Positions 4,098 to 29,131 of a stretch of 64,000 nt of DNA are shown here, piece by piece; the first letter of the stretch is position 1; every line of letters starts with the position of its first letter. The notes under the pieces were generated by a model, which had not been told where the DNA came from, did no database searches, and worked only from the letters and a program-made list of their open reading frames with translations. The DNA is from Candidatus Omnitrophota bacterium. Lineage in GTDB: Bacteria; Omnitrophota; Gorgyraeia; Duberdicusellales; 4484-171. The position numbers and the translations under genes are program-made. The DNA is taken from NCBI GenBank assembly GCA_018826075.1, contig JAHKAJ010000035.1, positions 15,069-79,068 on the forward strand, read 5' to 3'.

Positions 4098-4119
4098 ATA
4101 CCATGAATTTTATTGAGGT

Positions 4120-9294: not shown

Positions 9295-10359
9295 ATGATC
9301 AAGAAAAAAATGCATTTTCCCAAGACTGAGATACTTCCTCCGGGAACACTTGTCTATACCGGTGAAAAAAAAGTTAACGGAGCAAAGATTACGGTCATCG
9401 ACTATGACGAGAAACAATTTCAGGAAAAAGTGATAAAAAGTGTTGAAGAGTGCCTGCCGTTTAAGGATACTCCCACAGTTACCTGGGTAAATATAGACGG
9501 CCTGCAAGATGTCGGTTTGATTGAGAAGATCGGCAGGGAGTTTAACATCCATCCTTTAGCTTTGGAAGATATCCTTATGGTCGGCCAGCGGCCGAAATAT
9601 GAGGATTTTGAAAAATATCTTTTTGTGGCTTTAAAGATGTTGATGCTCGATGAGAAAAACAGCGAAATCACCTCTGAACAGGTCAGTTTGATAGTAAGCT
9701 CTAACTTTGTTATTTCCTTTCAGGAGACTGAAGGCGATGTTTTTAATCCTATCCGCGCGCGTTTAAGAAACGCCAAAGGCCGGATCAGGAAAGAAGGGGC
9801 TGATTACCTGGCTTACAGTTTAATCGATACGATAGTTGATAATTATTTTTCGATTTTAGAGAAAATCGGCGAGGACGTAGAATCAATCGAAGAGGAGTTG
9901 GTGACTAATCCCACTCCCAAAACCCTTCAGATAATCCATGATTTAAAAAGGCAGACCATATCTTTACGTAAATCAGTCTGGCCGTTAAGAGAGATCATCA
10001 ATGGTCTGGAAAGAGGTGAGATCCCGGTGATTAAAAAAACCACCCGGATTTACCTAAGGGATGTTTATGACCATACTATTCAGGTTATCGATACTGTGGA
10101 GACTTTACGCGATATGATTTCCGGAATGCTGGATATTTATCTTTCCAGCGTAAGCAACCGGATGAATGAAGTGATGAAGGTTTTAACTATCATCGCCACT
10201 ATTTTTATACCGATTACCTTTATATCCAGCCTCTACGGAATGAATTTTAAATATATGCCCGAACTTAACTGGCATTGGGGTTATTTCGGAGCTTTAAGCG
10301 TTATGCTTGCAGTAGTAGTTGTAATGCTTTCTTATTTTAAGCGGAAACGCTGGTTTTAG
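9295..10359 (+). CDS. corA: magnesium/cobalt transporter CorA
   Basis: YGMNF (GMN) motif before the final two TM helices and a cytoplasmic N-terminal domain. Confidence 0.9.
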   Translation: MIKKKMHFPKTEILPPGTLVYTGEKKVNGAKITVIDYDEKQFQEKVIKSVEECLPFKDTPTVTWVNIDGLQDVGLIEKIGREFNIHPLALEDILMVGQRPKYEDFEKYLFVALKMLMLDEKNSEITSEQVSLIVSSNFVISFQETEGDVFNPIRARLRNAKGRIRKEGADYLAYSLIDTIVDNYFSILEKIGEDVESIEEELVTNPTPKTLQIIHDLKRQTISLRKSVWPLREIINGLERGEIPVIKKTTRIYLRDVYDHTIQVIDTVETLRDMISGMLDIYLSSVSNRMNEVMKVLTIIATIFIPITFISSLYGMNFKYMPELNWHWGYFGALSVMLAVVVVMLSYFKRKRWF

Positions 10360-11736: not shown

Positions 11737-12306
11737 ATGGATAGTCCAAGTAAAATAACCGAACAACGGGCCAAGGATTTAAAGGAAATCGGCATTGTCA
11801 TTGACAGCTGGGATGATATTTTTTCCGACTTTGACCCCCGGCCGCTAACCGAGCGGACAGTTTCCGAAGACTTTCTTGATGAGTTGAGGAAACGCTATAA
11901 AGAAACCCGTACTGGAGAGTTTATCATCACTATCTACGCCCCTTTTTCCTTAAAAGATGAAGCTTCGGAGAAGATGGTTATTCAAAGATTGAAGAAACAC
12001 TTTCGTCATAAATTGTTACAAAAAAAGAAGCTGATCGTAAAAATCCGCCTGCGCGGGGTTATTTTTGTTCTCATCGGTATCTGTTCCTTAAGTTTTTTAA
12101 CCTTGGCTACTTACTTTAAGTTTGCAACCGAGATAACTATCCAGATTATGGGTATTTTTCTTATGCCTTTGGGTTGGTTTGGTTTTTGGGAAGGGCTTTC
12201 TAAACTTATTGATACTTCTCCGGTAGTTATCCATGATGAAAAATTATTTCAGAAACTTTCCAAAGCGCGTTATAGTTTTAAATATATAACTGAGAATGAA
12301 GGGTAG
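11737..12306 (+). CDS. hypothetical protein with two C-terminal TM helices
   Basis: ORF track. No motif recognised. Confidence 0.3.
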   Translation: MDSPSKITEQRAKDLKEIGIVIDSWDDIFSDFDPRPLTERTVSEDFLDELRKRYKETRTGEFIITIYAPFSLKDEASEKMVIQRLKKHFRHKLLQKKKLIVKIRLRGVIFVLIGICSLSFLTLATYFKFATEITIQIMGIFLMPLGWFGFWEGLSKLIDTSPVVIHDEKLFQKLSKARYSFKYITENEG

Positions 12307-12347
12307 GCGTATATTACAGCGGGAATAAGTAAGGGGGGCAAGAGACT

Positions 12348-12782
12348 ATGAAAGGAATAGTTTGTAAAGTCTGTGGTTATATTTCGATAAATGGGAAAGC
12401 TCCCGAGAAGTGCCCGGTTTGCGGCGCTCCGGCTTCCGCCTTTAAAGAAGACCCCAAGGCTATCAAAACAGCCGAGGATGAGGTAAATTTAAGCGAAAAA
12501 CATACTCCGGTTATAACTATCGCCAGAAAGTGCGGCCTTATCCCTGAAGGTTGTCAGGATGTACATGCCAAAGTGGGCAAGATCCAGCACCCGATGCTTG
12601 TCGAGCATTATATTACTACTATCGATTTTTACCTGGATAAAGAGTTTTTAGCCCGGGTACATTTAACTCCCGAAAAACTCAATCCGGCAGCCGCCCTGCA
12701 CCTTAAAGCGGAAAGCGGAAAACTTTCGGTTGTCGAGCATTGCAATCTGCACGGCGCCTGGATTGCTGAAACTGACTTGTAA
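12348..12782 (+). CDS. superoxide reductase (desulfoferrodoxin/neelaredoxin family) with an N-terminal CxxC-x15-CxxC rubredoxin-like domain
   Basis: N-terminal CKVCG...CPVCG. SOR catalytic-domain motifs EKHTPVI, two His in HPMLVEHY, and the C-x2-H ligand pair (CNLHG). Confidence 0.75.
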   Translation: MKGIVCKVCGYISINGKAPEKCPVCGAPASAFKEDPKAIKTAEDEVNLSEKHTPVITIARKCGLIPEGCQDVHAKVGKIQHPMLVEHYITTIDFYLDKEFLARVHLTPEKLNPAAALHLKAESGKLSVVEHCNLHGAWIAETDL

Positions 12783-12788
12783 AGAAAA

Positions 12789-13478
12789 ATGTCAGGCAAT
12801 AGGATTCTGATAGTTGAAGACGATAAGCCTATTTCCCAGCTGGTCAAATACAATTTGGAAAAAGCTGGGTTCAGCTGCCTTACTGCGATTAGCGGCGAAG
12901 AAGCTATAGAGATCCTAGATAAGCAGGCCGTTGATTTAATCATTTTGGATATAATGCTTCCAAAAATCGATGGCTTTGAGACTTGTAAGCTGATTAAAGA
13001 AGACAAGCGGCTATCTTCGATCCCGATAGTTATGCTTACCGCTAAAGGTGAAGAAGTAGATAAGGTAGTGGGTTTTGAATTGGGGGCGGATGACTATATT
13101 GTAAAGCCGTTTAGCCCTCGGGAGCTCACTCTTAGGATAAAGGCGATTTTAAGGCGCCGGCGGATTAAAGAAGAAGTAAAAAATATTTTCACTGCTGACA
13201 GGCTAACCATAGATCTTTCCCGCCATAAGGTCATCTTGGATAAAAAAGAAGTAGTTTTGACCCAGATGGAGTTCAAGCTGTTAGTCAAGCTTATTCAGAG
13301 GAAAGGCCGGGTGCAGTCAAGAGATTCTTTGCTTGAAGAGGTCTGGGATATTGCTGCTGACGTTACCACCCGTACCATAGACACTCACATCAAACGCCTT
13401 CGGCAAAAATTAGGTAAAGCCGGTAAATTAATCGAAACCATCAGGGGTGTCGGTTACCGCTTTAGTGAGGAGGGTTGA
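12789..13478 (+). CDS. phoB: OmpR/PhoB-family response regulator
   Basis: Receiver domain (ILIVEDD, D in LDIMLP, K in IVKPF) plus a winged-helix C-terminal domain. Sits immediately upstream of the kinase and the pst operon. Confidence 0.85.
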   Translation: MSGNRILIVEDDKPISQLVKYNLEKAGFSCLTAISGEEAIEILDKQAVDLIILDIMLPKIDGFETCKLIKEDKRLSSIPIVMLTAKGEEVDKVVGFELGADDYIVKPFSPRELTLRIKAILRRRRIKEEVKNIFTADRLTIDLSRHKVILDKKEVVLTQMEFKLLVKLIQRKGRVQSRDSLLEEVWDIAADVTTRTIDTHIKRLRQKLGKAGKLIETIRGVGYRFSEEG

Positions 13479-13481
13479 TTT

Positions 13482-15248
13482 TTGAGGATAAGTATCCATT
13501 ATAAAATTACTTTTATTTTCGTAATAATTACTGCAGTCATTCTCTCCGGGGTTTATTTTTACCTCAATAGCAATCTGAAAAAATTTACCTATCAGCGTAT
13601 AAAAACTAACCTTGCTAAACAAATCGCTTTAAGCCGGACATATCTAGAGCTAGAGTCTTCGAAAAATATCACAACTTACGATTTAGATGTTGCCGCCGAT
13701 GATATCGGAAAAGATTTGGGCCTTAGAGCTACAATTATTGGGTTTGACGGCGTAGTTTATGGTGATTCTGAATTAGAGGGGGATTCTCTATTAAAGGTTG
13801 AAAACCACCTTTACCGGCCGGAAGTCCAGCAGGCCATTAAATCCGGAAGCGGCGAAAGCCGGCGTTTCAGTAATACCGTCAAAAAAGATTTGCTTTATAT
13901 AACTTCAGTTTACGGCCAAGGTTCTAAGCAGGGAATAATTCGTTTGTCTATTCCCCTTTCAGAGATAGGCCAGATATCCGATCGTTTGAGGCAGACTTTG
14001 ATCCTTTCGCTTTTATTAGCTTTCATCTTGGCGGTTTTGGTTAGTTTTTTGGCTTCCAACTTCATTTCCAACCCAATTCGGGAGATATCTCTTAAGGCTA
14101 AAGACATTTCCCGGGGCCATTTTAGTCAAAAGATAATTTGCCGGCTTAACGATGAAATTAGTGATTTAGCCGAGGCTATCAATAATATGTCGGAAAAGGT
14201 AAAAGCCAGGATCGAAGAGGTCAATTACAGCAAATCCCGCTTAGAGGCAGTATTCTTAAGTATGCTCGAAGGGGTCATGGTTGTGGATATCAAGGGTAAG
14301 ATTTTGTTAATGAACCAGGCACTTAAGGATTATTTAAAGATCGATGAGGATCCTTTGGGAAAAAAGCCGCTTGAGGCGATACGCAATATCGAGATTCAGG
14401 GAATAGTCGATATTGTTTTAAATTCGAACCAGGAACTTATCAGCCGGGAGATCTCGGTTTTGCTTCCCGAAGAAAGAGTTTTTCTGGTACACGCTGCAGC
14501 TATTGGTAAAGACAAAAACAGCGAAGGAGCAGTTTTAGTTTTCCATGACGTTAGCAATTTAAGAAAGTTGGAAAGGCTGCGCCAGGATTTCGTGGCTAAC
14601 GTATCGCATGAGCTGCGCACCCCGGTGTCGACGCTTAAGGGTTATGCTGAAACTTTGCTCCAGGGAGCGTTAGAGGATAAGAAAAATGCCAGAGATTTTT
14701 TAGAAATTATCCTTTCTGATTCCAATAGGCTGGCTAGTTTAATCGATGACCTCTTAGACCTTTCTAAAATTGAATCGGGTAAACTTATTCTGGATAAAAA
14801 TTCCTATAAACTTTCGGAGATTGTAAAAAAAGTTTTGGTTAATTTAAAAATAAAAGATAGATCATTGAAAGTCAGCATAGACATACCTGATGATTTGCCG
14901 AAGGTAGCAGTTGATGAAGCCAGAATAAAACAAGTATTGTTCAATCTCATAGATAATGCTGTGAAGTATAACCGTCCCCAAGGCCAGATAACCATATCCG
15001 CAGAAGACGCCGGAGAAGCTGTGAGAGTGAATATTTCTGATACCGGCATAGGTATTCCTCAAAAAGATTTACCCCGGATATTTGAACGTTTTTACCGCGT
15101 GGATAAAGCCCGCTCCCGCGAGCTTGGCGGTACCGGCCTGGGGCTTTCAATCGTTAAGCATATCATTCAAGCCCACAATGGCGAAGTTTTTGTTCAGAGC
15201 ATAGAAGGCCAAGGCTCTACTTTTAGTTTCATCCTCCCCAAGGCTTAA
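13482..15248 (+). CDS. phoR: sensor histidine kinase (PhoR-like)
   Basis: Two TM helices, HAMP, PAS, a HisKA H-box (SHELRTP) and HATPase_c N, G1 and G2 boxes (DTGIGI, GGTGLGL). TTG start. Confidence 0.85.
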   Translation: MRISIHYKITFIFVIITAVILSGVYFYLNSNLKKFTYQRIKTNLAKQIALSRTYLELESSKNITTYDLDVAADDIGKDLGLRATIIGFDGVVYGDSELEGDSLLKVENHLYRPEVQQAIKSGSGESRRFSNTVKKDLLYITSVYGQGSKQGIIRLSIPLSEIGQISDRLRQTLILSLLLAFILAVLVSFLASNFISNPIREISLKAKDISRGHFSQKIICRLNDEISDLAEAINNMSEKVKARIEEVNYSKSRLEAVFLSMLEGVMVVDIKGKILLMNQALKDYLKIDEDPLGKKPLEAIRNIEIQGIVDIVLNSNQELISREISVLLPEERVFLVHAAAIGKDKNSEGAVLVFHDVSNLRKLERLRQDFVANVSHELRTPVSTLKGYAETLLQGALEDKKNARDFLEIILSDSNRLASLIDDLLDLSKIESGKLILDKNSYKLSEIVKKVLVNLKIKDRSLKVSIDIPDDLPKVAVDEARIKQVLFNLIDNAVKYNRPQGQITISAEDAGEAVRVNISDTGIGIPQKDLPRIFERFYRVDKARSRELGGTGLGLSIVKHIIQAHNGEVFVQSIEGQGSTFSFILPKA

Positions 15249-17782: not shown

Positions 17783-18661
17783 ATGGGCAAATCGGATATT
17801 CATAAAAAGATTTTTGCGGTTTTGGCTTTTTCTTCGTTAGTCTTTCTAATCGGGATCACTATTGTCCTGTTCAAAGAAGGCCTGCCGATTTTCAGAATCG
17901 TAAAACCGCTGAATTTTCTTTTCGGTAAGTATTGGTACCCGACTTATGACCCGCCGGATTTCGGAATTTTACCGTTGATTTTAGGTTCTTTATGGGTTAC
18001 TGCCGGGGCTCTTTTGGTTTGCGTTCCTTTGGGTATAGGCAGTGCTCTGTATCTGAATGAATTGGCCGGTCCAAAACAAAGAGCTTTTTTAAAGCCGGCC
18101 ATCGAGATCTTAGCCAGCATCCCTTCTATTGTTTTTGGTTTTTTTGGCATGGTAGTAGTAGCCCCTTTCTTGCAGAAATTACTTAACATTCCGGTAGGCC
18201 TTACTGCCTTTACCGGCAGTTTGATTTTGGGGGTTATGGCTACTCCTACGGTTTGCAGTATTGCCGAAGACGCCTTGAGTTTTGTTCCCAAGAGTTTTCG
18301 CGAGGCCTCGTTTGCCGTGGGTGCTAACCGCTGGCAGACTTTAGTCAAAGTAACATTACCGGCAGCCGGTTCAGGCATTTCCACCGCGGTTATTTTGGGG
18401 ATGAGCCGGGCAGTAGGAGAAACTATGACTGTATTGATGGTTTGTGGCGGCGCAGCAGTAATCCCTAAGTCTTTTTTTGAGCCGGTACGGCCGATGACCG
18501 CAACTATTGCCGCTGAGATGGGCGAAGCAGTAACCGGCAGCCCGCATTTTCAGGCTTTGTTTGCCATCGGGATGATTTTGTTTCTGGTGACTTTAGTTTT
18601 TAATATAGCCGCTGAGATAATCAGCCGCCGCTTCCGTTTAAAACTGGGGTTGGGCCGATGA
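17783..18661 (+). CDS. pstC: phosphate ABC transporter permease PstC
   Basis: Six-TM permease with an EAA-like loop. Confidence 0.9.
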   Translation: MGKSDIHKKIFAVLAFSSLVFLIGITIVLFKEGLPIFRIVKPLNFLFGKYWYPTYDPPDFGILPLILGSLWVTAGALLVCVPLGIGSALYLNELAGPKQRAFLKPAIEILASIPSIVFGFFGMVVVAPFLQKLLNIPVGLTAFTGSLILGVMATPTVCSIAEDALSFVPKSFREASFAVGANRWQTLVKVTLPAAGSGISTAVILGMSRAVGETMTVLMVCGGAAVIPKSFFEPVRPMTATIAAEMGEAVTGSPHFQALFAIGMILFLVTLVFNIAAEIISRRFRLKLGLGR

Positions 18662-19515
18662 AGATGAATAAGAGCTTAGACCAGAAAATAGGCTTTAGTT
18701 TGATTTTTTCGATGATGCTGATCACTTTATTTTTTCTCGGTTCCTTAGTATACTTTATTGCTGTCCGGGGGGCCGGGATAATTTCCTGGCAGTTTTTGAC
18801 TGATGTGCCCCGGGAAGCGATGACTAAAGGCGGCGTAGCCCCGGCAATCGTAGGCACCTTTTACCTCATGCTGGGTTCAGTGCTGGTAGCTTTGCCTTTA
18901 GGGGTGGCTTGTGCGATCTATCTTTGCGAATACAGCCCCAAAAAGACAATCGTCAACCTTATCCGGATAAGTATCAACAATTTAGCCGGAGTACCTTCAG
19001 TGGTTTTTGGCCTTTTTGGCCTGGCGGTTTTTGTAAAGTTTTTTGGCTTCGGCGTTTCGATTCTTTCCGGATGCCTTACATTAGGGATAATGGTTTTACC
19101 TAACATTATCTCGGCTTCCCAGGAGGCTTTGATAGCGGTTCCCCAATCTCACCGTGAAGCTTCCCTGGCTTTGGGCGCGACCCAATGGCAGACTATAAAA
19201 AAGGTAGTGCTTCCCGGCTCTTTGCCCGGTATTTTAACCGGCGTTATTTTAAGTATCGGCCGGGTGGCTGGAGAAACCGCACCGATTCTTTTCACCGCCG
19301 GCACTTTCTATATGCGGGGTTTTCCCAAATCGCCGCTATCTGAAACCATGGTTTTACCTTACCATATCTACGCTTTAATGACTGAAGGGGTACATCCTGA
19401 ATTTCAAGTTAAGATTGCTTATGGCTGCGCTTTTATTTTATTAATTCTGGTATTGTTAGTTTCGTCTTTCGCCATCATTTTACGTCAACAACAAAGGAGT
19501 CGTTATGGAATCTGA
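18658..19515 (+). CDS. pstA: phosphate ABC transporter permease PstA
   Basis: Permease paralog. Overlaps the pstC stop. Confidence 0.9.
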
Positions 19516-20266
19516 GTTAAAGATCAGGCTGGAAACAGTCAATTTTTTTTATGGTAAACAGCAGGCTTTGAAAGATATTAGTTTTGAGGTCTATAAAAAT
19601 AAAGTCACCGCGGTCATCGGGCCTTCGGGCTGCGGTAAATCTACTTTGATCCGGCTGTTTAACCGGATGAACGAGCTTATTCCTAATACCCGCTTGGAAG
19701 GAAAAATCCGCCTGGACCGACAGAATATCTACGAGCCGCAGGTCGATGTGGTCGAATTGCGCCGGCGAGTAGGGATGGTTTTTCAAAAGCCCAACCCTTT
19801 TCCCAAGTCGATCTTTGAAAATGTCAGTTATGGCCTGGCCGTCAACGGCATAAAAGACCGGGACTATCTGGCCGAAAAGGTAGAACGCAGCCTTAAGGAT
19901 GCGGCTTTGTGGAAAGAGGTCAGCGGCCGTTTGTACAAAAGCGCTTTAGCTTTATCCGGCGGCCAGCAGCAGCGGCTTTGCATTGCCCGGGCTTTGGCAG
20001 TCGAACCGGAGGTGATTCTTTTTGACGAGCCCTGTTCGGCTTTAGACCCCACGGCTACTTTAAAAATAGAGGAGTTGATCCAGAGGCTAAAGGAAAAATA
20101 TACCATTATTATCGTAACTCACAATATGCAGCAGGCTGCCCGGATTTCTGATCAAACTGCTTTTTTAATGCTTGGCGAATTAATAGAATATGATTTAACC
20201 AATAAGATTTTTACTAGTCCTTCTAAAAAAATAACTGAAGATTATATTACCGGGAGGTTTGGTTGA
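19505..20266 (+). CDS. pstB: phosphate ABC transporter ATP-binding protein
   Basis: Walker [18 protein letters not shown] and Walker B ILFDEP. Confidence 0.9.
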
Positions 20267-20267
20267 G

Positions 20268-21380
20268 ATGAAAGAAATTATAATACTGTTTGTCTGCGTT
20301 GAGAATTCCTGTCGCAGCCAGATGGCTGAGGGTTGGGCTAAGGAGTTTAGCCGTCAGGCAGGTTTAGATTTTATTAAAGCTTATAGCGCCGGCTCAAACC
20401 CTTCAGGTAAAGTTAATCCTGAAGCAGTTAAAGTGATGCAGGAAGCCGGAGTGGACATCAGCGGAGCGTTTTCTAAAGGGTTCGCCTATTTAGCCCAAAA
20501 GGATATAGATATAGCAGTTACTCTTGGCTGTCAGGATACGTGCCCTTATTTACCGTCAGATAAACATTTGCAGTGGGACGTCGAAGATCCCAAAGCTAAG
20601 AATATCGATAGTTTTCGTCAGGTCCGTGATATAATTAAAGAGAAAGTTAAGACTTTAATCAAAGAGTTGTTTTATCAAGCTCAATCAGGAGGAGAGATTA
20701 TGGAACGCAGTTTTGACGATGCTTTGAACAAGTTAAACGATGATATTTTAAAAATGGCTGCTTTAGCTGAAGAAGCGATTTATAAATCAGTTGAGTCGTT
20801 AAAAAACCAAGATAAAAAACTGGCCCAAAAGGTCGTCGATGACGATCAAAAGATTGATGAATTGGAGATTGCGGTTGAAGAGGAGGCCATTGATCTTTTA
20901 GCGCTTCAGCAGCCAATGGCTAGAGACCTAAGGTTTATTACTACCGGCATGAAGATTAACGCTGAACTTGAGCGGATTGCTGACCTGGCAGTTAATATCG
21001 CCCAGAGGGTTTTAGATGTCGTTGATAAACCCTTAGTTAAACCTTTAATCGATATACCTAAATTGGCTGAAGTCAGCCGGAAAATGGTTAAAGGAGCAAT
21101 CGATGCTTTTGTTAAGCGCAGTGAAGATTTGGCCCGGCAAGTTATTATGATGGATCCAGAAGCTGACTGCCTGCGTAATAAAATTTACGATGAACTTATT
21201 AATGATTATATGATTAAAGATGGGGCAACCGCCCCTCGGGCAGTTCCACTTATCCTGATTGCCAGGCATTTAGAAAGGATTTGTGACCACGCCGGCTATA
21301 TCGCCGCTGATGTTATCTACATGATTAAAGCTAAGGTAGTGAAGCATCATCCTGAACGCTTGAAAAATAACCATTCCTGA
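20268..21380 (+). CDS. phoU: fusion protein: an N-terminal ArsC/low-molecular-weight phosphotyrosine-phosphatase-fold domain joined to full-length PhoU
   Basis: The N-terminal domain (about 140 aa) has the CX5R P-loop CVENSCRS, a DP loop (DVEDP) and extra Cys residues (CQDTC). The C-terminal domain (about 225 aa) is PhoU with two repeats. An internal AGGAGG RBS and ATG lie at 20687-20702, in frame. The ATG at 20268 is preferred over the TTG at 20259. Confidence 0.75.
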   Translation: MKEIIILFVCVENSCRSQMAEGWAKEFSRQAGLDFIKAYSAGSNPSGKVNPEAVKVMQEAGVDISGAFSKGFAYLAQKDIDIAVTLGCQDTCPYLPSDKHLQWDVEDPKAKNIDSFRQVRDIIKEKVKTLIKELFYQAQSGGEIMERSFDDALNKLNDDILKMAALAEEAIYKSVESLKNQDKKLAQKVVDDDQKIDELEIAVEEEAIDLLALQQPMARDLRFITTGMKINAELERIADLAVNIAQRVLDVVDKPLVKPLIDIPKLAEVSRKMVKGAIDAFVKRSEDLARQVIMMDPEADCLRNKIYDELINDYMIKDGATAPRAVPLILIARHLERICDHAGYIAADVIYMIKAKVVKHHPERLKNNHS

Positions 21381-21955: not shown

Positions 21956-22873
21956 ATGCATATTCCTAATGCTATGTTACAGGGGCAGATTTGCCCGGTT
22001 ACTGCGGTGGCCAGTGTTATCGGTATTGGCTTAGCAGCTTGGAAGGCTTTTTCATCTAAAGAGAAACCGGCAGCTTCCCGATTCGCAGCAATCACGGCTT
22101 TAATTTTTGCTGTTCAAATGATGAATTTTTCGATTAGTGGAGGTACTTCCGGACATTTACTTGGCGGTGTGCTCGCGGCTGCGTTGCTGGGTATTCCCTT
22201 TGGTATTTTATCTATAGCGCTTGTGGTAACGACACAATGTTTAGTTTTTTCTGATGGGGGATTTATTGTATTGGGTGCAAATATACTTAATATGGCTATT
22301 ATTGGTGCTGGCCTGGGAGGGCTTATTCAGGCGTTTCTTAGTAAAGGTTTGCCTATAAAATCGGTCCGACAAGCAGCTAGCCTTGGACTTACCAGTTGGC
22401 TTGCGGTGATGATGGCAGCTTTAGCCTGTAGTATCGAATTAGCGGTTTCAGGAACAATTCCTTTCTTCAAAGTTGTCGGAGCGATGCTTGGTACCCATGC
22501 TTTTATCGGTATCGGCGAAGGGTTGATTACTGTCGCGGCCTATTATGTTTTTACTTCTGAACCAGGAAGAGTTTCTCAGAGAAGATCGGCCACGGTTCCT
22601 TTGCTGGCCGCCGGCATAATCGCGTTTGTATTAAGCCCTTTTGCTAGCGGTTTTCCTGATGGATTAGAGTGGGTTGCCGGAAAATTCCAGTTTCTTCATG
22701 AATCATCACCGACTTTTATCAGCCCTTTGTCTGATTACATAGTTCCGGCTGTCAGCAATGAAATGTTAGCTACTGGTTTGGCAGGATTGGCGGGATTAAT
22801 GATTACTTTTTTTATTGCTTGGATAGTCGCCCGCCTACTGGTAAAGCCGGTAAAAATTGGGGTAAGTTCTTAA
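21956..22873 (+). CDS. nikM: NikM/CbiM-family ECF-transporter substrate-capture component with a C-terminal PDGLE domain
   Basis: N-terminal MHIPNAM (the Met-His metal-ligand N-terminus of CbiM/NikM). C-terminal GFPDGLEW. Directly downstream of nikR. No Q (T) or O (A) components nearby. Confidence 0.7.
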   Translation: MHIPNAMLQGQICPVTAVASVIGIGLAAWKAFSSKEKPAASRFAAITALIFAVQMMNFSISGGTSGHLLGGVLAAALLGIPFGILSIALVVTTQCLVFSDGGFIVLGANILNMAIIGAGLGGLIQAFLSKGLPIKSVRQAASLGLTSWLAVMMAALACSIELAVSGTIPFFKVVGAMLGTHAFIGIGEGLITVAAYYVFTSEPGRVSQRRSATVPLLAAGIIAFVLSPFASGFPDGLEWVAGKFQFLHESSPTFISPLSDYIVPAVSNEMLATGLAGLAGLMITFFIAWIVARLLVKPVKIGVSS

Positions 22874-23184
22874 TTTTTTTCACTGGTGGCAATCACAGGG
22901 TTTAGAGATTAGTTTTATACTTGGGTAGTTTTAATACTGCTACAATGCCTGCCTATGAATATTCCCATAACGACTTTTAGCCGGCCGTTACCGCCTTATA
23001 TACGTAAGATGAAGAGAATAACTTAGATCCGGGTGTGTGAGGTAGGGGCTGTCTTATCCCGCCTCGGCTAAATATGCGGTAAATTCTCTTCGATAATTTT
23101 CCGCAACCTCGGCGGGATTAATTCGGCCTAATATTTTTTTGTGCTCTTTCAGCTTGAAAAAATATTGGCCTCATTAAAAAATAC

Positions 23185-23231
23185 TTGACAGAGTAGCGTA
23201 TCTGGGTATAATTGATAACGGAAACCATTTC
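23185..23231 (+). promoter_or_regulatory. fur promoter (TTGACA, 16-nt spacer, TATAAT) with an overlapping Fur-box-like operator
   Basis: TTGACA at 23185-23190, TATAAT at 23207-23212, and operator-like tGATAACGGAAACCATTTC at 23213-23231. Confidence 0.55.
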
Positions 23232-23247
23232 TATTAAGGAGAAATAA

Positions 23248-23721
23248 ATGCCAAGAGGTAATTGCCAAGGACAAGGGTGGTGGCATGGAAAATTCAAGGG
23301 TTGTGGATACAGACTCACGGCTGGCCGGGAGGCTATCCTTGATATCTTGTCTAAATCCGAAGGCCACTTAAGCGCTGAAGATATCTACATGAAGATTCAT
23401 TCCCGCTATCCTAATGTTGGGCTTACCACTATTTATAGGACATTGGAGGTGTTGTCTAACCTTGGCATGGTGCATAAGCTTGATTTTGGGGATAGAAGAG
23501 CGCGTTATGAGTTAGCTGAAGGGCCTGAAGGCGCGCATCATCACCATCATTTAGTTTGCACCGATTGCAACAAAGTGGTTGATTATACGGACTTTATCGA
23601 TGAAGAGGTAGAACTCTTAAGAGAAACCGAGAAAGGTTTAGGCGCTAAATATAATTTTCAGATTACTAATCACGTTATCCAATTTTACGGCTTATGCGGC
23701 AAATGTAGCGGTAAGAAATAA
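23248..23721 (+). CDS. fur: Fur-family metalloregulator
   Basis: Winged helix (TTIYRTLEVLSNLGMV), a His-rich metal site (HHHHHLVC) and C-terminal CxxC pairs (CTDCNK...CGKCSG). Confidence 0.8.
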   Translation: MPRGNCQGQGWWHGKFKGCGYRLTAGREAILDILSKSEGHLSAEDIYMKIHSRYPNVGLTTIYRTLEVLSNLGMVHKLDFGDRRARYELAEGPEGAHHHHHLVCTDCNKVVDYTDFIDEEVELLRETEKGLGAKYNFQITNHVIQFYGLCGKCSGKK

Positions 23722-23739
23722 CCGCTATATTTTTTTCTC

Positions 23740-23759
23740 TGATAATGGAAATGGTTTTC
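23740..23759 (+). promoter_or_regulatory. second Fur-box-like site upstream of the DUF5320 gene
   Basis: tGATAATGGAAATGGTTTTC matches the Fur box GATAATGATAATCATTATC at 14 of 19 positions and shares TGATAAYGGAAAY with the fur promoter site. Confidence 0.45.
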
Positions 23760-23781
23760 ACTAACTAAACGGAGGTGCAAT

Positions 23782-24132
23782 ATGCCGGGTTTTGACGGAA
23801 CAGGTCCTATGGGGCAAGGTGGGATGACAGGGGGTGGAAGAGGGTATTGTGCGGTTAATCTAAACGGCACAGGCGCAAGGCAAGGAGTTGAGCGTGGATT
23901 CTTCAGAAGAGATGGCGGCCGCGGGCACAGGAATTGTTTTTACGCAACAGGTTTTTCGGGATGGATGAGGGCTCAAAGAGGCATGCAGGCGTTTGGCGGT
24001 TTTGGCCGCATAGGATTAAAGGAGAATGAATTAGCGATTTTTAAAGATCAGGCCGATTATCTTAAAGATGAGCTTGAGGCTGTACAGGCACGTGTCCAGG
24101 ATCTAGAGGGTAAACAAGAAGCGGGGAAATAG
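23782..24132 (+). CDS. DUF5320-like glycine-rich protein with a C-terminal coiled coil
   Basis: MPGFDGTGPMGQGGMTGGGRGYC N-terminus plus a C-terminal coiled coil. This arrangement is typical of DUF5320 proteins encoded next to NifX-like genes. Confidence 0.5.
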   Translation: MPGFDGTGPMGQGGMTGGGRGYCAVNLNGTGARQGVERGFFRRDGGRGHRNCFYATGFSGWMRAQRGMQAFGGFGRIGLKENELAIFKDQADYLKDELEAVQARVQDLEGKQEAGK

Positions 24133-24168
24133 TTGTTTTAAAGATTAATTAAGGAAGGAGATTGAAAT

Positions 24169-24546
24169 ATGAGAGTTGGAGTTGTGTTAGAAGATGAGAA
24201 TGGTGTGCAGGGTAATGTCTGTGCGCATTTTGGACAGTGCAAATTTTTCTTCTTGGCCGATATTGATGAGGATAAGAAGAAGATTACAGGTACTCGCATT
24301 GTGCCGAATACCGCTTCGCATGGCGGAGGTGGATGTGTAGCGGTGGATGAGATATTGAAGTACAAAGTTACCCATGTTATTGCTGGAGGCATGGGGATGG
24401 GTGCCCAGCAGAAATTTTCGCAAGCCGGGGTACAGGTATTCGGCTATTCCGGTAATGTGCAAAAAGCTATTGATGATTTTATGAACAATACCTTAGGAGG
24501 CCTTGACGCTTGTAAGGATCATGGCCTTGGCGAAAGCTGTTATTAA
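24169..24546 (+). CDS. NifX/NafY-type (dinitrogenase iron-molybdenum cofactor biosynthesis domain) small protein
   Basis: HFGQCKFF...IAGGMGMGAQQKFSQAGVQV, the fold signature of the NifB/NifX/NafY C-terminal domain. No nitrogenase genes in the window. Confidence 0.7.
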   Translation: MRVGVVLEDENGVQGNVCAHFGQCKFFFLADIDEDKKKITGTRIVPNTASHGGGGCVAVDEILKYKVTHVIAGGMGMGAQQKFSQAGVQVFGYSGNVQKAIDDFMNNTLGGLDACKDHGLGESCY

Positions 24547-24560
24547 AAAGGAAGGTTTAA

Positions 24561-24935
24561 ATGAAAATATGTATTACTTCAGAAGGTAAAACTTTGGATT
24601 CCAAAGTTGACCCTCGCTTCGGCCGGTGCCAGAATTTCATTTTTTTCGATATTGATAACGGTAATTTTGAAGCGCAGGAGAATGCAAACGCTCAGTTTCA
24701 GGGTGGAGCTGGTATTCAGTCAGGTCAGTTTGCGGTATCCAAAGGAGTCAAGGTCGTTATTACCGGAAACGTCGGGCCCAACGCGCATCAGGTCTTATCA
24801 GCCGCAGGAATCAGTATATACACCGGAGTTTCCGGAACGGTAAGAGAAGCGATCGACGGCTACAAAAACGGAAAATATAAACCCGCAGCTGCTCCGAGTG
24901 TGGGTTCAAAATTTGGCATGCCGCCAAAAAAATAG
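24561..24935 (+). CDS. NifX/NafY-type small protein, paralog of the gene above
   Basis: RFGRCQNFIFFD...VITGNVGPNAHQVLSAAGISIY. Confidence 0.7.
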   Translation: MKICITSEGKTLDSKVDPRFGRCQNFIFFDIDNGNFEAQENANAQFQGGAGIQSGQFAVSKGVKVVITGNVGPNAHQVLSAAGISIYTGVSGTVREAIDGYKNGKYKPAAAPSVGSKFGMPPKK

Positions 24936-24997
24936 AAAAAGAAAGTATGAATTGTCCTAAATGCGGTACAACAATAATAAGAGAATAAAGGTAAACA

Positions 24998-25609
24998 TTG
25001 GAAAAAGAAGTTTTAGAAAACCATCAGAGGTATTTAGAACGGAAAGCCTTATATAAAAGTTTTGGCTGCGATATCGATAAAGAACGCGAATTTATTATTG
25101 CCAAAGCCCAGCCTCTTTACGGAGATATTTTAGAAGCCGGAACCGGTAAAGGGCATTTTGCGTTTAGCCTGGCCAGGCAAGGTTATAAGTTTACTACTTT
25201 CGATATTTCCGAGGAAGAACAGAATTTTGCAAAACTTACTTTAAAGTATTTTGATTTAGATAGCTTTGTTGAATTCAAGATCGAGAACGGCGAAACTTTA
25301 AGTTTTGAAGATGGAATATTTGATATTATTTTTTCTATAAATACACTCCATCATCTTATAAATCCATATAAGGTTATCGATGAAATTATCCGCGTGCTTT
25401 CTTTTGAAGGTAAAATTATCTTGAGTGATTTTACCAGGGAAGGTTTTCAACTAATGGATAAAATACACAAAAATGAAGGCAATATCCATCAAGTAAGTAA
25501 AGTTACCTTAGCAGATATAGAGAAATATTTGAGTACCAAAGGCTTTAGAGTAGAAAAATATAAAAGCCGATTTCAGAAAGTTTTAATTGCCTACCAACAA
25601 TTAGTATGA
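24998..25609 (+). CDS. class I SAM-dependent methyltransferase
   Basis: Motif I ILEAGTGKGHFAFSLA. TTG start. AT-rich relative to the upstream genes. Confidence 0.65.
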   Translation: MEKEVLENHQRYLERKALYKSFGCDIDKEREFIIAKAQPLYGDILEAGTGKGHFAFSLARQGYKFTTFDISEEEQNFAKLTLKYFDLDSFVEFKIENGETLSFEDGIFDIIFSINTLHHLINPYKVIDEIIRVLSFEGKIILSDFTREGFQLMDKIHKNEGNIHQVSKVTLADIEKYLSTKGFRVEKYKSRFQKVLIAYQQLV

Positions 25610-26460
25610 TTATTTCAGTAGCCAGCGGTAAAGGCGGGACCGGTAAGACCACGATAGCTGTAAATCTTGCCCTATCTATAAAAGGAGAGGTGCAGTTTTT
25701 AGACTGCGATGTAGAAGAACCGAATGCCCATATTTTTTTAAAACCCGAAATAACAGAAACCAAAAAAGTTTATATCCCGGTTCCGGAAATTGACCAGAAT
25801 AAGTGTAACTATTGCGGTAAATGCCGCGAGGTTTGCGTCTATAACGCTATCGCGGTTATAAAAGGAACTGTAGACAAAAAGGGTAGTATCTTGGTTTTCT
25901 CAAATCTTTGTCATGGCTGCGGGAGCTGTTCCTATTTCTGTCCGGAAAGCGCGATAAAGGAAGTAAATAAGGAAATAGGCGAAATTGAAATAGGCACAGC
26001 TGGAGCTATTCAATTTATACACGGGCGATTGAATATAGGTGAAGCGATGGTTCCGCCGGTCATAAGGCAAATAAAAAAACATATTAATCCAACGCGTACA
26101 GTCGTTATTGATGCCCCTCCCGGTACATCATGTCCTGTAGTCGAAACGATAAAAAGAAGCGATTTTTGCGTACTGGTTACCGAACCGACACCGTTTGGCT
26201 TGAACGATTTAATGCTGGCCGTGGAAGTCTTACGTAAGCTCAAAGTGCCTTTTGGAATCGTGATTAACCGCTCGGATTTGGGCAATGAAAAAACAGACGA
26301 GTATTGCGAAAAGGAGGATATTCCTATTCTTATGCGTATACCCTTTAAAAAGGAGATAGCAGTTGCCTATTCTAAAGGTGAACCGATTGTGAAAACGTTT
26401 CCCGAATACAGAAAAGATTTTGAAGAGCTTTTTAATAAGATTAAAGGTTTATTAAATTAG
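25606..26460 (+). CDS. MinD/ParA/Mrp-superfamily P-loop ATPase with an inserted 4Fe-4S ferredoxin domain
   Basis: Deviant Walker A SGKGGTGKTT, then CNYCGKCREVC and CHGCGSCSYFCP, then the remainder of the ATPase core. Confidence 0.75.
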   Translation: MIISVASGKGGTGKTTIAVNLALSIKGEVQFLDCDVEEPNAHIFLKPEITETKKVYIPVPEIDQNKCNYCGKCREVCVYNAIAVIKGTVDKKGSILVFSNLCHGCGSCSYFCPESAIKEVNKEIGEIEIGTAGAIQFIHGRLNIGEAMVPPVIRQIKKHINPTRTVVIDAPPGTSCPVVETIKRSDFCVLVTEPTPFGLNDLMLAVEVLRKLKVPFGIVINRSDLGNEKTDEYCEKEDIPILMRIPFKKEIAVAYSKGEPIVKTFPEYRKDFEELFNKIKGLLN

Positions 26461-26461
26461 A

Positions 26462-27313
26462 ATGAAACAAATTGTTGTCATAAGCGGAAAAGGTGGAACC
26501 GGCAAGACTGTGATTACGGGCGCGTTCGCGGCGCTGGCGAAGAATAAAGTTATGGCTGACTGTGATGTGGACGCGGCCGATCTATATCTTTTGCTGAAGC
26601 CGTCTATCAAAGAAAAGCATGAATTTAGAAGCGGCAAAACAGCAGTTATCGATAAGGCTAAATGCATTCAGTGCGGTAAATGTATTGAATTATGCCGTTT
26701 TGCTGCCATAAGTAAGGATTTTATTATCGACCCTATTTCTTGTGAAGGTTGTGCCTTTTGTAGTTTTGCTTGTCCGGCAGGCGCTATCAGGATGGAAGAA
26801 AATACTTCAGGCGAGTGGTTTATCTCTGATACTCGTTTTGGCCCGATGGTTCACGCTAAGCTGGGTATAGCCGAGGAAAATTCAGGCAAGCTTGTTTCTT
26901 TGGTGAGAAAACAGGCAAAAGAATTAGCAGATAATAGTAATTGCGATTGGGTCATTGTTGATGGTGCCCCGGGGATAGGTTGTCCGGTCATAGCGTCTCT
27001 TTCGGGTGTAGATTGTGCTGTAGTTGTTACCGAGCCAACATTGTCAGGTTTGCATGATGCCGACAGGGTTATTAAACTAGTTAAACATTTTGGAATTTCA
27101 GTCAAAGTAGTTGTAAATAAATATGATCTTAATTCAGAGATGACCGATAAAATTGAACAGTATTGCCAGGATAACAATATCGATTTAATTGGAGAAATTC
27201 CTTTCGATAAAGCAGTAGTGGAAGCTATGGTTGAAGCTAAGACTATTATTGAATATAAGGATACGGCAGTTAAGGATGAGATTCGCAGAATTTGGGAAAA
27301 ATTACAAGTTTAG
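26462..27313 (+). CDS. second MinD/ParA-type ATPase with an inserted 4Fe-4S ferredoxin domain (paralog)
   Basis: SGKGGTGKTV, then CIQCGKCIELC and CEGCAFCSFACP. Confidence 0.75.
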   Translation: MKQIVVISGKGGTGKTVITGAFAALAKNKVMADCDVDAADLYLLLKPSIKEKHEFRSGKTAVIDKAKCIQCGKCIELCRFAAISKDFIIDPISCEGCAFCSFACPAGAIRMEENTSGEWFISDTRFGPMVHAKLGIAEENSGKLVSLVRKQAKELADNSNCDWVIVDGAPGIGCPVIASLSGVDCAVVVTEPTLSGLHDADRVIKLVKHFGISVKVVVNKYDLNSEMTDKIEQYCQDNNIDLIGEIPFDKAVVEAMVEAKTIIEYKDTAVKDEIRRIWEKLQV

Positions 27314-27325
27314 AATAAGGATTTT

Positions 27326-28300
27326 ATGGATAGACGGGATATCCATGTACTAAAATATTTTTCATCTTTTGTGAGCGTCTCGCATGGGAAGGTTATTAAT
27401 ATTACCGAGCCAACACTTGCTTTTTGCCCACTGGCAGAACATCTATATAAGGATTTTAGTGGTATTCGGGTTAACGATAAGGAAGCTATTAAAGATTCGA
27501 TAAAAAAAGTGATTGAGTCAAAAATAAAAGACTATGGTTTCTTTACCGATGAGAGAAAAATTTCATTTGATGATGTTGCGATTCGGTATGGCGCCTCAGA
27601 GATGCTCATGTTTGCGTTAAAAAAAGGCGCGATAGACGCTGCAGTTGTAGTTTGTGAAGGGGCGGGGACGGTTATTACGAATAAACCGGAAATTGTCCAG
27701 GGTATAGGCGCCCGAATGAATAGCCTATTGTTAACTTCACCCATCCAAAGGATCATTAAGAAACTTAAAACTGTTGGCTGCCAAGTGATATTTGAAAACG
27801 CGCTTATCGATCAGGTGCGGGGAGTTAAGGAGGCGATAAAAGCAGGATATAAAACCATTGCTGTTACTGTATGTGGTAATTCAGCTGAGGATTTAAAAGC
27901 ATTACGTTTGTTGGAGAAAGAAAGCGGCGTTAGAATAATTTTATTGGTAGTATGTACGACCGGCCTGGCTAAAGATAAGATAACTTTGGTACGCGATTAC
28001 GCTGATTTGGTGTGGAGTTGTGCTTCTTTCGATATAAGACAGATGATTGGGCCTTTAGCCAAATGTCAGCTTTCCGAGCAAATACCTGTTTTTGTCTTGA
28101 CGAAAGCGGGAATGGACTTTGTTTCTGCTTACGCTGACGAAAGCGGCGTAGTTAAAAACCTGGATATTAGAAAACAATACCTTTTTTCAAATAAGTCTGG
28201 CGGGCAATGCGTTCATTTAGGAAGTTATAAAGTGTTTATCAGCGAGTCTAAATTACCGGTTAATACCCGGAATATGCCGATTTTCCAGGATAAAAACTAA
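27326..28300 (+). CDS. uncharacterised conserved protein; from memory, the VCEGAGTVIT block resembles DUF2099 / methanogenesis-marker-8-type proteins
   Basis: 324 aa with alpha/beta character. Gly-rich VVVCEGAGTVITN and GIGARM blocks. Confidence 0.3.
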   Translation: MDRRDIHVLKYFSSFVSVSHGKVINITEPTLAFCPLAEHLYKDFSGIRVNDKEAIKDSIKKVIESKIKDYGFFTDERKISFDDVAIRYGASEMLMFALKKGAIDAAVVVCEGAGTVITNKPEIVQGIGARMNSLLLTSPIQRIIKKLKTVGCQVIFENALIDQVRGVKEAIKAGYKTIAVTVCGNSAEDLKALRLLEKESGVRIILLVVCTTGLAKDKITLVRDYADLVWSCASFDIRQMIGPLAKCQLSEQIPVFVLTKAGMDFVSAYADESGVVKNLDIRKQYLFSNKSGGQCVHLGSYKVFISESKLPVNTRNMPIFQDKN

Positions 28301-28345
28301 TACACATCTGTGTAGACAAAGAATCGCTGGCGGGAATATACCCAT

Positions 28346-28741
28346 ATGGAAAATGAGAATAATAAAGAAAAAACTATCGGCTATCCTAAAGAGGTGATCA
28401 ATCTTTTAAATGATCCGAGGTTTTTCGGCAGGATGAATGATCCTACTGGTTCAGCCTACTTAAAAGGGCCGTGCGGGGATTCGATGGAGTTTTATTTGAT
28501 AATCGAAGATGACAGGATTGCTGATATCAAATATTACACAGAAGGCTGTGGTGCTACAAGGGCTTGTGCTGCGATGGTTGCCTATTTAGCTTATAATAAG
28601 GCTATTAATCAAGCTTTGGATATTTCAGCCGGTGAGGTTATCCAGCAGTTAAAAGGTTTGCCCGAAGACCATTTGCACTGTTCAATACTTGCAGTAAGCA
28701 CTCTTTATCGGGCAATAGCCGATTATTTATTACGTTTTTGA
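28346..28741 (+). CDS. IscU/NifU-N-type Fe-S cluster scaffold protein
   Basis: GCGDSM...C...HC cysteine pattern (PCGDSMEF, EGCGATRACAA, HLHCSILA). Confidence 0.75.
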   Translation: MENENNKEKTIGYPKEVINLLNDPRFFGRMNDPTGSAYLKGPCGDSMEFYLIIEDDRIADIKYYTEGCGATRACAAMVAYLAYNKAINQALDISAGEVIQQLKGLPEDHLHCSILAVSTLYRAIADYLLRF

Positions 28742-28771
28742 AATATTAATCAATTTTAAAAGGAGGTAGAG

Positions 28772-29131
28772 ATGGAGCAGAAGGCATTCGGGTATGAACT
28801 GATTATGGACTTGTATGATTGTGATTTAAAAACTATGAAGTCTAAGAAAAAAATTAGAGAATATGTCGATCGTCTTTGTAAATTAATCGATATGGAGAAA
28901 TACGGTAAATTGCATCTTCCTTATTTTGGCTTACAAAAAGCTCAGACCAAGGGCTATTCACTTTTACAATTTATTGAAACCAGTTCGATAACCGGGCATT
29001 TTAGCGAACACTGGCGCGTTTCTTATCTTAATGTTTTTTCCTGTAAATCTTTTGACCATAAAATTGCTTTAAAATTCACTAAGGAATTTTTTGCCGCGAG
29101 CCGCGTAAAGTCAAAATTTCTGGTGCGTTGA
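28772..29131 (+). CDS. speH: S-adenosylmethionine decarboxylase proenzyme, small bacterial/archaeal type
   Basis: GYELIMDLYDC at the N-terminus and an autoprocessing serine site FIETSSITGHF. About 120 aa. Confidence 0.7.
   Translation: MEQKAFGYELIMDLYDCDLKTMKSKKKIREYVDRLCKLIDMEKYGKLHLPYFGLQKAQTKGYSLLQFIETSSITGHFSEHWRVSYLNVFSCKSFDHKIALKFTKEFFAASRVKSKFLVR

Follow-up and report, generated by a model that had tools for sequence, protein, structure and literature searches.

Gene content and conservation of the locus

In a 64-kb stretch of DNA (hereafter the window) from a Candidatus Omnitrophota metagenome-assembled genome (MAG), contig JAHKAJ010000035.1, ten open reading frames (ORFs) form a co-directional row on the plus strand at window positions 23248–29131. 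They encode, in this order, a Fur-family repressor, a DUF5320 protein, two NifX-like proteins (NifX1 and NifX2), an S-adenosylmethionine (SAM)-dependent methyltransferase, two paralogous MinD/ParA/Mrp-type ATPases (A and B), a DUF2099 protein, an IscU-like scaffold and a divergent AdoMet_dc-family protein. The row is best explained as a lineage-specific, expanded version of the orange protein (ORP) cluster, organised as a single operon and led by a dedicated, autoregulated Fur-family repressor. Intergenic gaps range from -4 to 62 nt, in agreement with a preliminary description of this DNA, made from the letters and their translations, which had listed the same genes as one row with short gaps. 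Start and stop codons overlap or abut at the junctions between the methyltransferase, ATPase A and ATPase B. The GC content is even across the row and thus gives no sign of recent insertion, and Rfam and tRNA scans of the window returned nothing, so that the cluster holds no riboswitch or other RNA element detectable in this way. Profile searches with Pfam and NCBIfam models recovered the families that had been named at first sight, among them NifX/NafY, MinD with an inserted ferredoxin, and DUF5320. Of the 36 window ORFs that reach 250 aa, 30 were scanned with profiles. None of these 30 is a nif gene (nifHDK, nifEN and nifB included) or a hydrogenase gene, which upholds the initial statement that nitrogenase genes are missing from the window. 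The NifX-like proteins cannot serve nitrogenase within this window.

A scan of one genome per species gave 59 related loci, which were annotated using the window proteins as queries. Fifty-eight of them carry DUF2099, and many of the gene absences among these 58 are due to contig ends. The order fur–DUF5320–NifX–NifX–(methyltransferase)–ATPase A–ATPase B–DUF2099–IscU occurs in about 45 of the 58 DUF2099-bearing loci, each from a different species. It is kept down to approximately 44% DUF2099 identity and is also present in an Auribacterota MAG. ATPase B was identified in 46 loci, ATPase A in 38, the IscU-like gene and the methyltransferase in 35 each, fur in 34 and DUF5320 in 30, and the IscU-like gene adjoins DUF2099 in 35 of the 58. 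The linkage of the cluster genes is far above chance, which supports the view of a single conserved unit linked to a Fur-family regulator, and the earlier suggestion that this neighbourhood recurs is thereby confirmed. Its emphasis on nikR and a nikM-type gene directly before fur found no such backing: the order nikR–cbiM–fur was seen only in one related locus (L029) and cbiM–fur only in another (L014), and we rejected nikR–cbiM as part of the unit since linkage to the cluster is limited to 1–2 of the 58 loci.

The window holds the minimal form of the cluster. In relatives, further genes are inserted within the row: an ARMT1/DUF89 phosphatase in 22 loci, a third ATPase in 20, a 263-aa radical SAM protein in 20, a CoA-binding protein together with a CoA-disulfide-reductase-like (CoADR-like) flavoprotein in 14–16, an EncFtn-like ferritin in 12, HydG in seven (L004, L007, L013–L016 and L050; for example positions 5577–7028 of L007) and MetK in four. 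The HydG proteins exceed the curated cut-off of TIGR03955 (457.6 versus 312 bits), and neither HydE nor HydF was seen beside HydG in the related loci. None of the CoADR-like, HydG, radical SAM, ARMT1, EncFtn or MetK genes was found elsewhere in the 64-kb window. The chemistry of the EncFtn-like, CoADR-like, HydG, radical SAM and MetK proteins is in every case that of iron, sulfur or SAM. L007 illustrates the arrangement of the inserted EncFtn, CoA-binding/CoADR-like, radical SAM and ARMT1/DUF89 genes (positions 1403–1663, 3814–5561 and 11905–13574, with equivalents in other loci). A conserved ORF of 71–79 aa without an assigned family lies 5' of the methyltransferase in 26 loci.

The Fur-family regulator and its operators

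The first gene of the row (positions 23248–23721) encodes a regulator of 157 aa with the Fur-family fold (PF01475, 114.8 bits), which nevertheless scores below every curated Fur equivalog cut-off checked. Its best NCBIfam match is the Bacillus-type Fur model NF051892 (133.3 bits, cut-off 220), and the PerR model gives 87.6 bits (cut-off 180). Similarly, the closest solved structure is a Fur protein (9ire, 107.7 bits), and PerR (2fe3) scores 81.8 bits. All 35 sequences have the two CxxC pairs of the structural zinc site (C104, C107, C150 and C153) as well as H99 and H101, and the HHH motif is invariant. Residue D112, kept in 30 of the 35 orthologues, aligns with an aspartate in PerR 2fe3, whereas the Fur structures 9ire, 6d57 and 2w57 have a glutamate at this position. 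Iron would be the likeliest signal judging from the sequence features, a reading that has to be qualified because D112 is PerR-like despite the Fur-type protein and operator. Of the iron-responsive control assumed in the preliminary description, the Fur-type protein and operators therefore stand, while iron as the signal is what we infer.

Upstream of fur, a sigma-70-type promoter on the plus strand (positions 23185–23212) consists of TTGACA, a 16-nt spacer and TATAAT, matching the consensus at 12 of 12 positions. An alignment of the upstream regions places TTGACA and, about 17 nt downstream, a TATAAT-like -10 element at the same position in nearly all related loci, followed directly past the -10 element by a 21-bp palindrome with the consensus TAATGGAAAcCATTTtCATTA. 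This Fur-box-like palindrome, TAATGGAAAnnATTTTCATTA, thus lies at the fur promoter and recurs ahead of the ribosome-binding site of DUF5320. Mismatches were counted against the consensus TAATGRAAANNNTTTYCATTA, and sites with up to three mismatches were accepted. Operator 1 (TAACGGAAACCATTTCTATTA, positions 23216–23236), 3 nt past the -10 element, has two mismatches, and operator 2 (TAATGGAAATGGTTTTCACTA, positions 23743–23763), separated by 21 nt from the fur stop codon and by 18 nt from the start of DUF5320, has one; a Fur-box-like site had originally been proposed at positions 23740–23759, and operator 2, one mismatch from the family consensus, bears this out. The two operators are the only strong sites in the window, for a chance expectation of 0.54; three other matches have three mismatches each. 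Among 30 distinct loci, operator 1 is present in 27, operator 2 in 26 and both in 24, and all loci together (954 kb) contain only 74 sites. The conservation of the pair and the scarcity of sites elsewhere make the regulator look dedicated to itself and to this operon. The palindrome is similar to the classical Fur box, whose sequence, GATAATGATAATCATTATC, is closely approached by the site of one relative (L049). In the light of established work on the Fur paralogues of Bacillus, the outer TG...CA of the 7-1-7 core would fit recognition by Fur better than by PerR. Four loci (L027, L030, L033 and L044) have another Fur-family gene at a distance of a few kilobases 3' of the cluster; at least two Fur paralogues in these genomes would fit a specialisation of the cluster-linked Fur.

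Between fur and DUF5320, the preliminary description had seen no intrinsic terminator. A plausible one is present: a hairpin with a 9-bp stem and an 8-nt loop, followed by a T7 tract, overlaps the fur stop codon (plus strand, positions 23704–23736; stem 23704–23729, T7 23730–23736). It was detected by the terminator scan, and RNAfold assigns it a folding energy of -11.9 kcal/mol, with a z-score of -4.4 relative to shuffled sequences. Among 27 orthologous regions, a folding energy of -5 kcal/mol or lower is reached in only 10, whereas nearly all keep a TATA-T7 tract past the stop codon. We therefore rejected the hairpin as a generally conserved terminator, and it is plausible as one for this genome, where the downstream genes could be reached by read-through of a leaky terminator or from a second promoter. 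A conserved TATATT between fur and DUF5320 (positions 23726–23731) is a possible -10 element, with no -35-like hexamer at the right distance. Either way, the same repressor sits ahead of the structural genes. Only 23 nt (L008) and 11 nt (L034) separate fur from DUF5320 in two relatives that lack the second operator, so that the operon in these loci must be read from the fur promoter and co-transcription is forced. In Escherichia coli, the suf operon for iron–sulfur (Fe–S) cluster assembly is controlled through a Fur-box operator and expressed when iron is limiting. Suf differs in that its proteins are wholly other ones, with no SufBCD or SufS encoded here, and in that the present operon contains the gene of its own, apparently dedicated regulator; even so, the parallel makes expression of the operon under iron limitation a reasonable guess.

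Protein families and conserved ligand residues

The DUF5320 protein (positions 23782–24132; PF17253, E=4e-16, 60.4 bits) combines a cationic N-terminal part rich in glycine, arginine and aromatic residues with an acidic C-terminal helix. With 24 Gly, 10 Arg and 10 aromatic residues, the segment 1–78 has an isoelectric point (pI) of 11.4, compared with 4.5 for the C-terminal part. In 26 orthologues, the N-terminal parts typically contain 21–33% Gly, 9–16% Arg plus Lys and 7–17% aromatic residues, with pI values mostly between 9.3 and 11.8, and C23 is present in all 26. A tblastn search of DUF5320 against plasmids gave no match, and a search of the literature on COG1149/DUF5320 found essentially nothing. 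NifX1 (positions 24169–24546; PF02579, 68.3 bits) is acidic, and its best solved relative is PH0822 (2yx6, E=2.6e-8). Its residues H20, C24 and C115 are invariant and H118 is nearly so. NifX2 (positions 24561–24935; PF02579, 87.1 bits) is basic (pI 9.4), carries an invariant C23 and ends in a short Pro/Lys tail of about 20 residues. It is of the orange-protein type: residues 2–113 match the Desulfovibrio gigas orange protein 2WFB (E=7.1e-19, 71.4 bits), and it also matches TM1816 (1RDU, E=1.7e-21) and MTH1175 (E=2.6e-18).

The thioferrate storage protein IssA of Pyrococcus furiosus is itself a NifX-like (IPR003731) protein, with a 70-residue tail that is Gly-rich, aromatic and cationic (pI 10.7; PMC5524996). 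The Omnitrophota cluster shares with it the NifX-like domain and a disordered cationic segment, rich in Gly and aromatic residues, whose composition matches. The segment differs in being located on the separate DUF5320 protein, which has a conserved cysteine and a coiled-coil-like acidic helix, and the regulatory logic differs as well. The same composition in the N-terminal part of DUF5320 and in the thioferrate-binding tail of IssA is to be read as analogy, not homology.

The class I SAM-dependent methyltransferase (positions 24998–25609; Methyltransf_11, 69.3 bits) reaches the cut-off of no NCBIfam equivalog. ATPase A (positions 25606–26460) and ATPase B (positions 26462–27313) are both of the CbiA/ParA (NUBPL) type, with Fer4 matches in A, and B is a paralogue with the same ferredoxin insert and 32% identity to A over the full length. 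Each contains two CxxCxxCxxxC motifs, a 2x[4Fe-4S] ferredoxin module, inserted between Walker A and the rest of the fold, and the deviant Walker A motif GKGGTGKT and all eight ferredoxin cysteines are invariant. Three further cysteines are conserved in each ATPase, namely C34 (35 of 37 sequences), C176 and C234 (both invariant) in A, and C34 and C174 (both invariant) and C235 (41 of 42) in B. These extra cysteines may serve as ligands of a further cluster or metal, perhaps where two subunits meet in a dimer.

The IscU/NifU-N-type scaffold (positions 28346–28741; PF01592, NifU_N, 89.3 bits) scores 96.7 bits with the Clostridium-type NifU equivalog TIGR03419, below the cut-off of 187.9. All cluster-ligand motifs are present, PCGDS with C43 and D45, GCG with C68 and HCS with H111 and C112; C43, C68, H111 and C112 occur in 30 of 30 sequences and C74 in 29 of 30. 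The last gene of the row (positions 28772–29131) had been called speH. Its product does contain an AdoMet_dc domain (PF02675, 59 bits), but it scores only 26.5 bits with the AdoMetDC equivalog TIGR03330 (cut-off 75.65), and such a gene lies near the cluster in only 7 of the 58 loci. This divergent AdoMet_dc-family protein probably stands outside the conserved unit. Some SpeD homologues of Omnitrophota were shown to be ornithine decarboxylases (PMC10407285).

DUF2099 and its distribution

The 324-aa protein encoded between ATPase B and the scaffold (positions 27326–28300), to which no function could be assigned at first, belongs to DUF2099 (PF09872, E=6.5e-79, 265.2 bits, cut-off 25), also known as methanogenesis marker 8 (TIGR03275, 239.4 versus 232.7 bits). 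A sequence search against solved structures returned chance-level matches only. The structural model predicts an FrhB-like fold, with which a borderline Pfam match to FrhB_FdhB_N agrees. Identity to the FrhB/FdhB family (the beta subunit of F420-reducing hydrogenase, HCAR and the N-terminal half of Fsr) is only 15–17%. DUF2099 differs from this family further in that its four invariant cysteines (C34, C110, C210 and C232) are not demonstrably those of the FrhB cluster, and in that its locus provides no hydrogenase or F420 context. A search of the literature on DUF2099/Mmp8 found essentially nothing.

The name of TIGR03275 rests on the premise of a restriction to methanogenic archaea. The relatives of the window protein do not show this restriction. 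The family is very small, with 282 representatives at E≤1e-3 among 1.84 billion (185 at E≤1e-10), and most of the 120 closest relatives bear the name Candidatus Omnitrophota or Omnitrophica; other carriers are Bathyarchaeia, Asgard archaea and Methanocaldococcus. In Methanocaldococcus fervens (L064, positions 6875–8846), DUF2099 lies directly 3' of ribK (CTP-dependent riboflavin kinase) and ribB (DHBP synthase), a neighbourhood that fits a flavin-related protein. The order ribK–ribB–DUF2099 was also observed on an independent metagenome contig (L065). DUF2099 is found 3' of a corrinoid protein and an MttB-like methyltransferase in Bathyarchaeia, and near HdrA-like genes in an Asgard archaeon. 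One family member (P0205, 502 aa, on a Logan contig of 1994 bp) is a class I SAM methyltransferase fused to DUF2099, with 33% identity to the methyltransferase and 44% to the DUF2099 protein of the window; this fusion, known from a single short contig, hints that the two proteins act together. Ten longer members were inspected for clues to function and discarded, as their N-terminal extensions contain no Pfam domain and P0205 alone was informative. In L050 (positions 9001–9733), DUF2099 is split into two short ORFs, which may reflect a pseudogene or an assembly error.

Relation to the ORP system

The neighbourhood had been taken to be uncharacterised. Its core of ATPases and NifX-like proteins corresponds to the published ORP cluster of Desulfovibrio, which the preliminary description did not name. 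In D. vulgaris, Orp3 and Orp4 are similar to each other, each with two [4Fe-4S] motifs, Orp5 is homologous to a [2Fe-2S] protein, Orp8 is the orange protein homologue and Orp9 is MrpORP (PMC6345978). Five ORP proteins form a complex, MrpORP transfers Fe–S clusters to Orp proteins in vitro, and the orange protein carries a [S2MoS2CuS2MoS2] cluster (PMC6345978). The genes are arranged in two divergent operons, orp5-orp4-orp3 and orp7-orp8-orp9, whose expression depends on sigma-54 and on OrpR, an activator that senses redox state (PMC8359166). The Omnitrophota cluster shares with the ORP system of D. vulgaris Hildenborough (DVU2103-2109) the paired paralogous MinD-like ATPases with two [4Fe-4S] ferredoxin motifs each, the small NifX-fold proteins, one of them a counterpart of Orp8 as judged by the match of NifX2 to 2WFB, the restriction to anaerobes and the presence of one dedicated local regulator. 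NifX1, with its invariant H20, C24 and C115, is a candidate for the place of the second small protein, Orp5. The link to ORP is also supported by the NCBIfam model of MrpORP, NF041136, which matches both the ATPases and the NifX-like proteins domain by domain, though never as a whole. In contrast, the MrpORP fusion protein is missing; sigma-54/OrpR/IHF control is replaced by a Fur-family repressor with two operators; and the divergent arrangement is replaced by one co-directional row behind a perfect sigma-70-type promoter, with no adjacent gene for an enhancer-binding protein. DUF2099, the IscU-like scaffold and the SAM methyltransferase are extras of the Omnitrophota.

ORP-like arrangements occur in other phyla as well. 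Peptoclostridium acidaminophilum has the row DUF134–NifX–ATPase–ATPase–MrpORP, and in a Chloroflexota record a helix-turn-helix regulator and DUF5320 are divergent from NifX–ATPase–ATPase–DUF59–peroxiredoxin, DUF59 being an Fe–S factor. ATPase B is 42–44% identical to the ATPase pairs of these two clusters. Both have the same tandem ATPase pair, an adjoining NifX-like gene and a local regulator, and the Chloroflexota cluster has DUF5320 as well; they differ in the regulator families and in having MrpORP or DUF59 in place of DUF2099, the IscU-like scaffold and the methyltransferase. The occurrence of the ATPase pair, NifX and DUF5320 across phyla shows a recurring ORP-type unit that was placed under differing local regulators by lineage. 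Fur-type control, the fixed linkage of DUF2099/Mmp8 and IscU, and the conservation across the phylum Omnitrophota appear to be undescribed in the literature that was searched.

Proposed function and alternative explanations

We propose, and consider about as likely as not, that the unit is an ORP-type system for the ATP-dependent assembly and transfer of Fe–S clusters or metalloclusters, with its own scaffold and redox partner and a dedicated Fur-family repressor. The initial reading of the genes as ATP-driven machinery for handling such clusters fits the gene content. In a hypothetical sequence of steps, (i) the IscU-like protein would build simple Fe–S clusters; (ii) the paralogous deviant-Walker-A ATPases, which bear two [4Fe-4S] clusters apiece in addition to their three extra conserved cysteines, would pair as an ATP-dependent dimer and pass electrons or clusters onward; (iii) NifX1 and NifX2, together with the cationic DUF5320 partner, would hold Fe–S or metal-sulfide species as carriers or as a buffer; (iv) the FrhB-like DUF2099 protein, perhaps with the SAM methyltransferase, would supply or remove reducing equivalents; and (v) the repressor, bound to two operators at its own promoter and ahead of DUF5320, would release the operon upon a change in the metal or redox signal. 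The model builds on the gene families, the synteny, the operators, the ligand residues and the predicted fold of DUF2099, and from these we infer the heterodimer, the direction of cluster flow, the signal of the regulator and the roles of DUF5320 and DUF2099.

Several points weigh against this proposal. The template itself is ambiguous, as the function of the ORP system is unsettled: cell division was proposed first and is still only putative (PMC6345978, PMC8359166). The cluster lacks MrpORP (Orp9), the sole component of the ORP system for which cluster transfer was shown. Matches to the MrpORP model are only partial, with 42–56 bits versus a cut-off of 450, and no further P-loop ATPase of its kind was found in the window. 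Likewise, the cluster and the scanned window ORFs yielded no cysteine desulfurase or class V aminotransferase. The hairpin with the T7 tract could separate fur from the rest of the row in this genome. The DUF2099 model is of moderate confidence, and its N-terminal 36 residues, including the invariant C34, have a predicted local distance difference test (pLDDT) score below 50; in addition, the quite different neighbourhoods of DUF2099 outside Omnitrophota indicate that its role may be independent of the ORP part.

ATP-dependent Fe–S storage or buffering, with delivery from the store, is an unlikely alternative. NifX-like proteins would nucleate an anionic, thioferrate-type polymer as in IssA, with DUF5320 as the free-standing counterpart of the IssA tail and the ATPases and DUF2099, as an FrhB-like redox enzyme, loading or mobilising the store. 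The NifX-like nature of IssA, the tail-like composition of DUF5320 in 26 orthologues, the match of NifX2 to MTH1175, the structural template used for IssA, and the EncFtn-like ferritin genes within the cluster of 12 relatives would all suit such a store. However, the resemblance is one of composition only, IssA has no reported need for such ATPases, and the invariant cysteines of DUF5320 and the NifX-like proteins point to defined ligation and not to electrostatic binding. Moreover, a classical Fur would turn the operon on when iron is scarce, opposite to the need of a store for excess iron. If this reading were true, three orphan families, namely DUF5320, the MinD-like ATPases with a ferredoxin module and DUF2099/Mmp8, would for the first time be placed in a functional context, and the storage and delivery system could point to a main route of Fe–S supply in Omnitrophota. 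We assign a similarly low probability to the maturation, with SAM-dependent steps, of one organometallic or modified metallocofactor for an enzyme encoded elsewhere, such as an [FeFe]-hydrogenase. HydG above its cut-off inside the cluster of seven relatives, the radical SAM protein in 20 and MetK in four, the methyltransferase–DUF2099 fusion and the known role of NifX-family proteins as cofactor carriers speak for it. Yet HydG is confined to a minority of loci, with HydE and HydF not among the genes observed there, this window lacks HydG, the radical SAM protein and MetK alike, no target enzyme is linked to the cluster, and the fusion is known from a single 2-kb contig.

The remaining explanations are less probable still. 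A role in the detoxification or trafficking of heterometal sulfides, for example thiometallates of Mo, W, Cu or Ni, modelled on the Mo-Cu-S cluster of the orange protein, seems to us improbable. It would agree with the closeness of NifX2 to the orange protein with its [S2MoS2CuS2MoS2] cluster and with nikR and cbiM directly upstream, but that linkage is confined to 1–2 of 58 loci, regulator and operator are of the Fur type and not of the ModE or NikR type, and it is uncertain whether the Mo-Cu cluster matters physiologically. A role in cell division or spatial positioning, first proposed for ORP in view of its MinD-like ATPases, is very improbable here. Weak matches of the ATPases to the MinD models TIGR01969 and TIGR01968, with 67 and 60 bits, would speak for it, but these scores are far under the cut-offs of about 202–213 bits, all other genes of the operon belong to metal, Fe–S or redox families, and a Fur-type regulator and an IscU-like scaffold lie in the same operon. 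We see just as little chance that there is no single unit at all, but an ORP-like module that happens to adjoin a separate DUF2099–IscU module in a compact genome, with fur serving only itself. Mere adjacency would accommodate the dense packing of genes on a single strand throughout the window, the terminator-like hairpin behind fur and the other contexts of DUF2099 outside the phylum; it would not account for an order that is kept across species to approximately 44% DUF2099 identity despite variable genes inserted inside the row, for a second operator conserved directly ahead of DUF5320, or for the overlapping or abutting codons at the methyltransferase/ATPase A/ATPase B junctions.

The ORP-type assembly and transfer system that we favour would bear on a wider question, as ORP-type clusters are widespread in anaerobes and their function is unsettled more than a decade after the first report. 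The Omnitrophota variant adds an IscU-like scaffold, a likely redox partner in DUF2099 and a simple repressor–operator switch, which makes concrete experiments possible. DUF2099, still labelled a methanogen marker, is here tied to bacterial iron–sulfur genes. Omnitrophota are uncultured and have small genomes, and a nearly phylum-wide operon with its own regulator is likely to be physiologically important.

Surroundings of the cluster

The surrounding genes of the window comprise a pst/phoU phosphate operon, nikR–cbiM, a MATE pump, Pit and other housekeeping genes. The pst operon includes a PhoR-like kinase (positions 13482–15248), a porin and PstS, with unscanned ORFs in the positions of PstC, PstA and PstB (18658–20266), and ends in a protein in which an ArsC-like LMWPc phosphatase domain is fused to two PhoU domains (positions 20259–21380). 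The CbiM/NikM gene 3' of nikR (positions 21956–22873) encodes a C-terminal PDGLE domain. In the spacer between cbiM and fur (about positions 23057–23141), a long-range inverted repeat, ATCCCGCC...GGCGGGAT, is followed by a T-run and may be the cbiM terminator; it has no Rfam match. Further downstream, positions 61604–63037 hold an ORF of 477 aa without a Pfam match at E≤1e-8. The plus strand carries 66 of the 67 window ORFs that are 90 aa or longer, and the GC skew is positive throughout positions 1–64000, so that the window probably lies inside a single replichore with a strong gene-strand bias.

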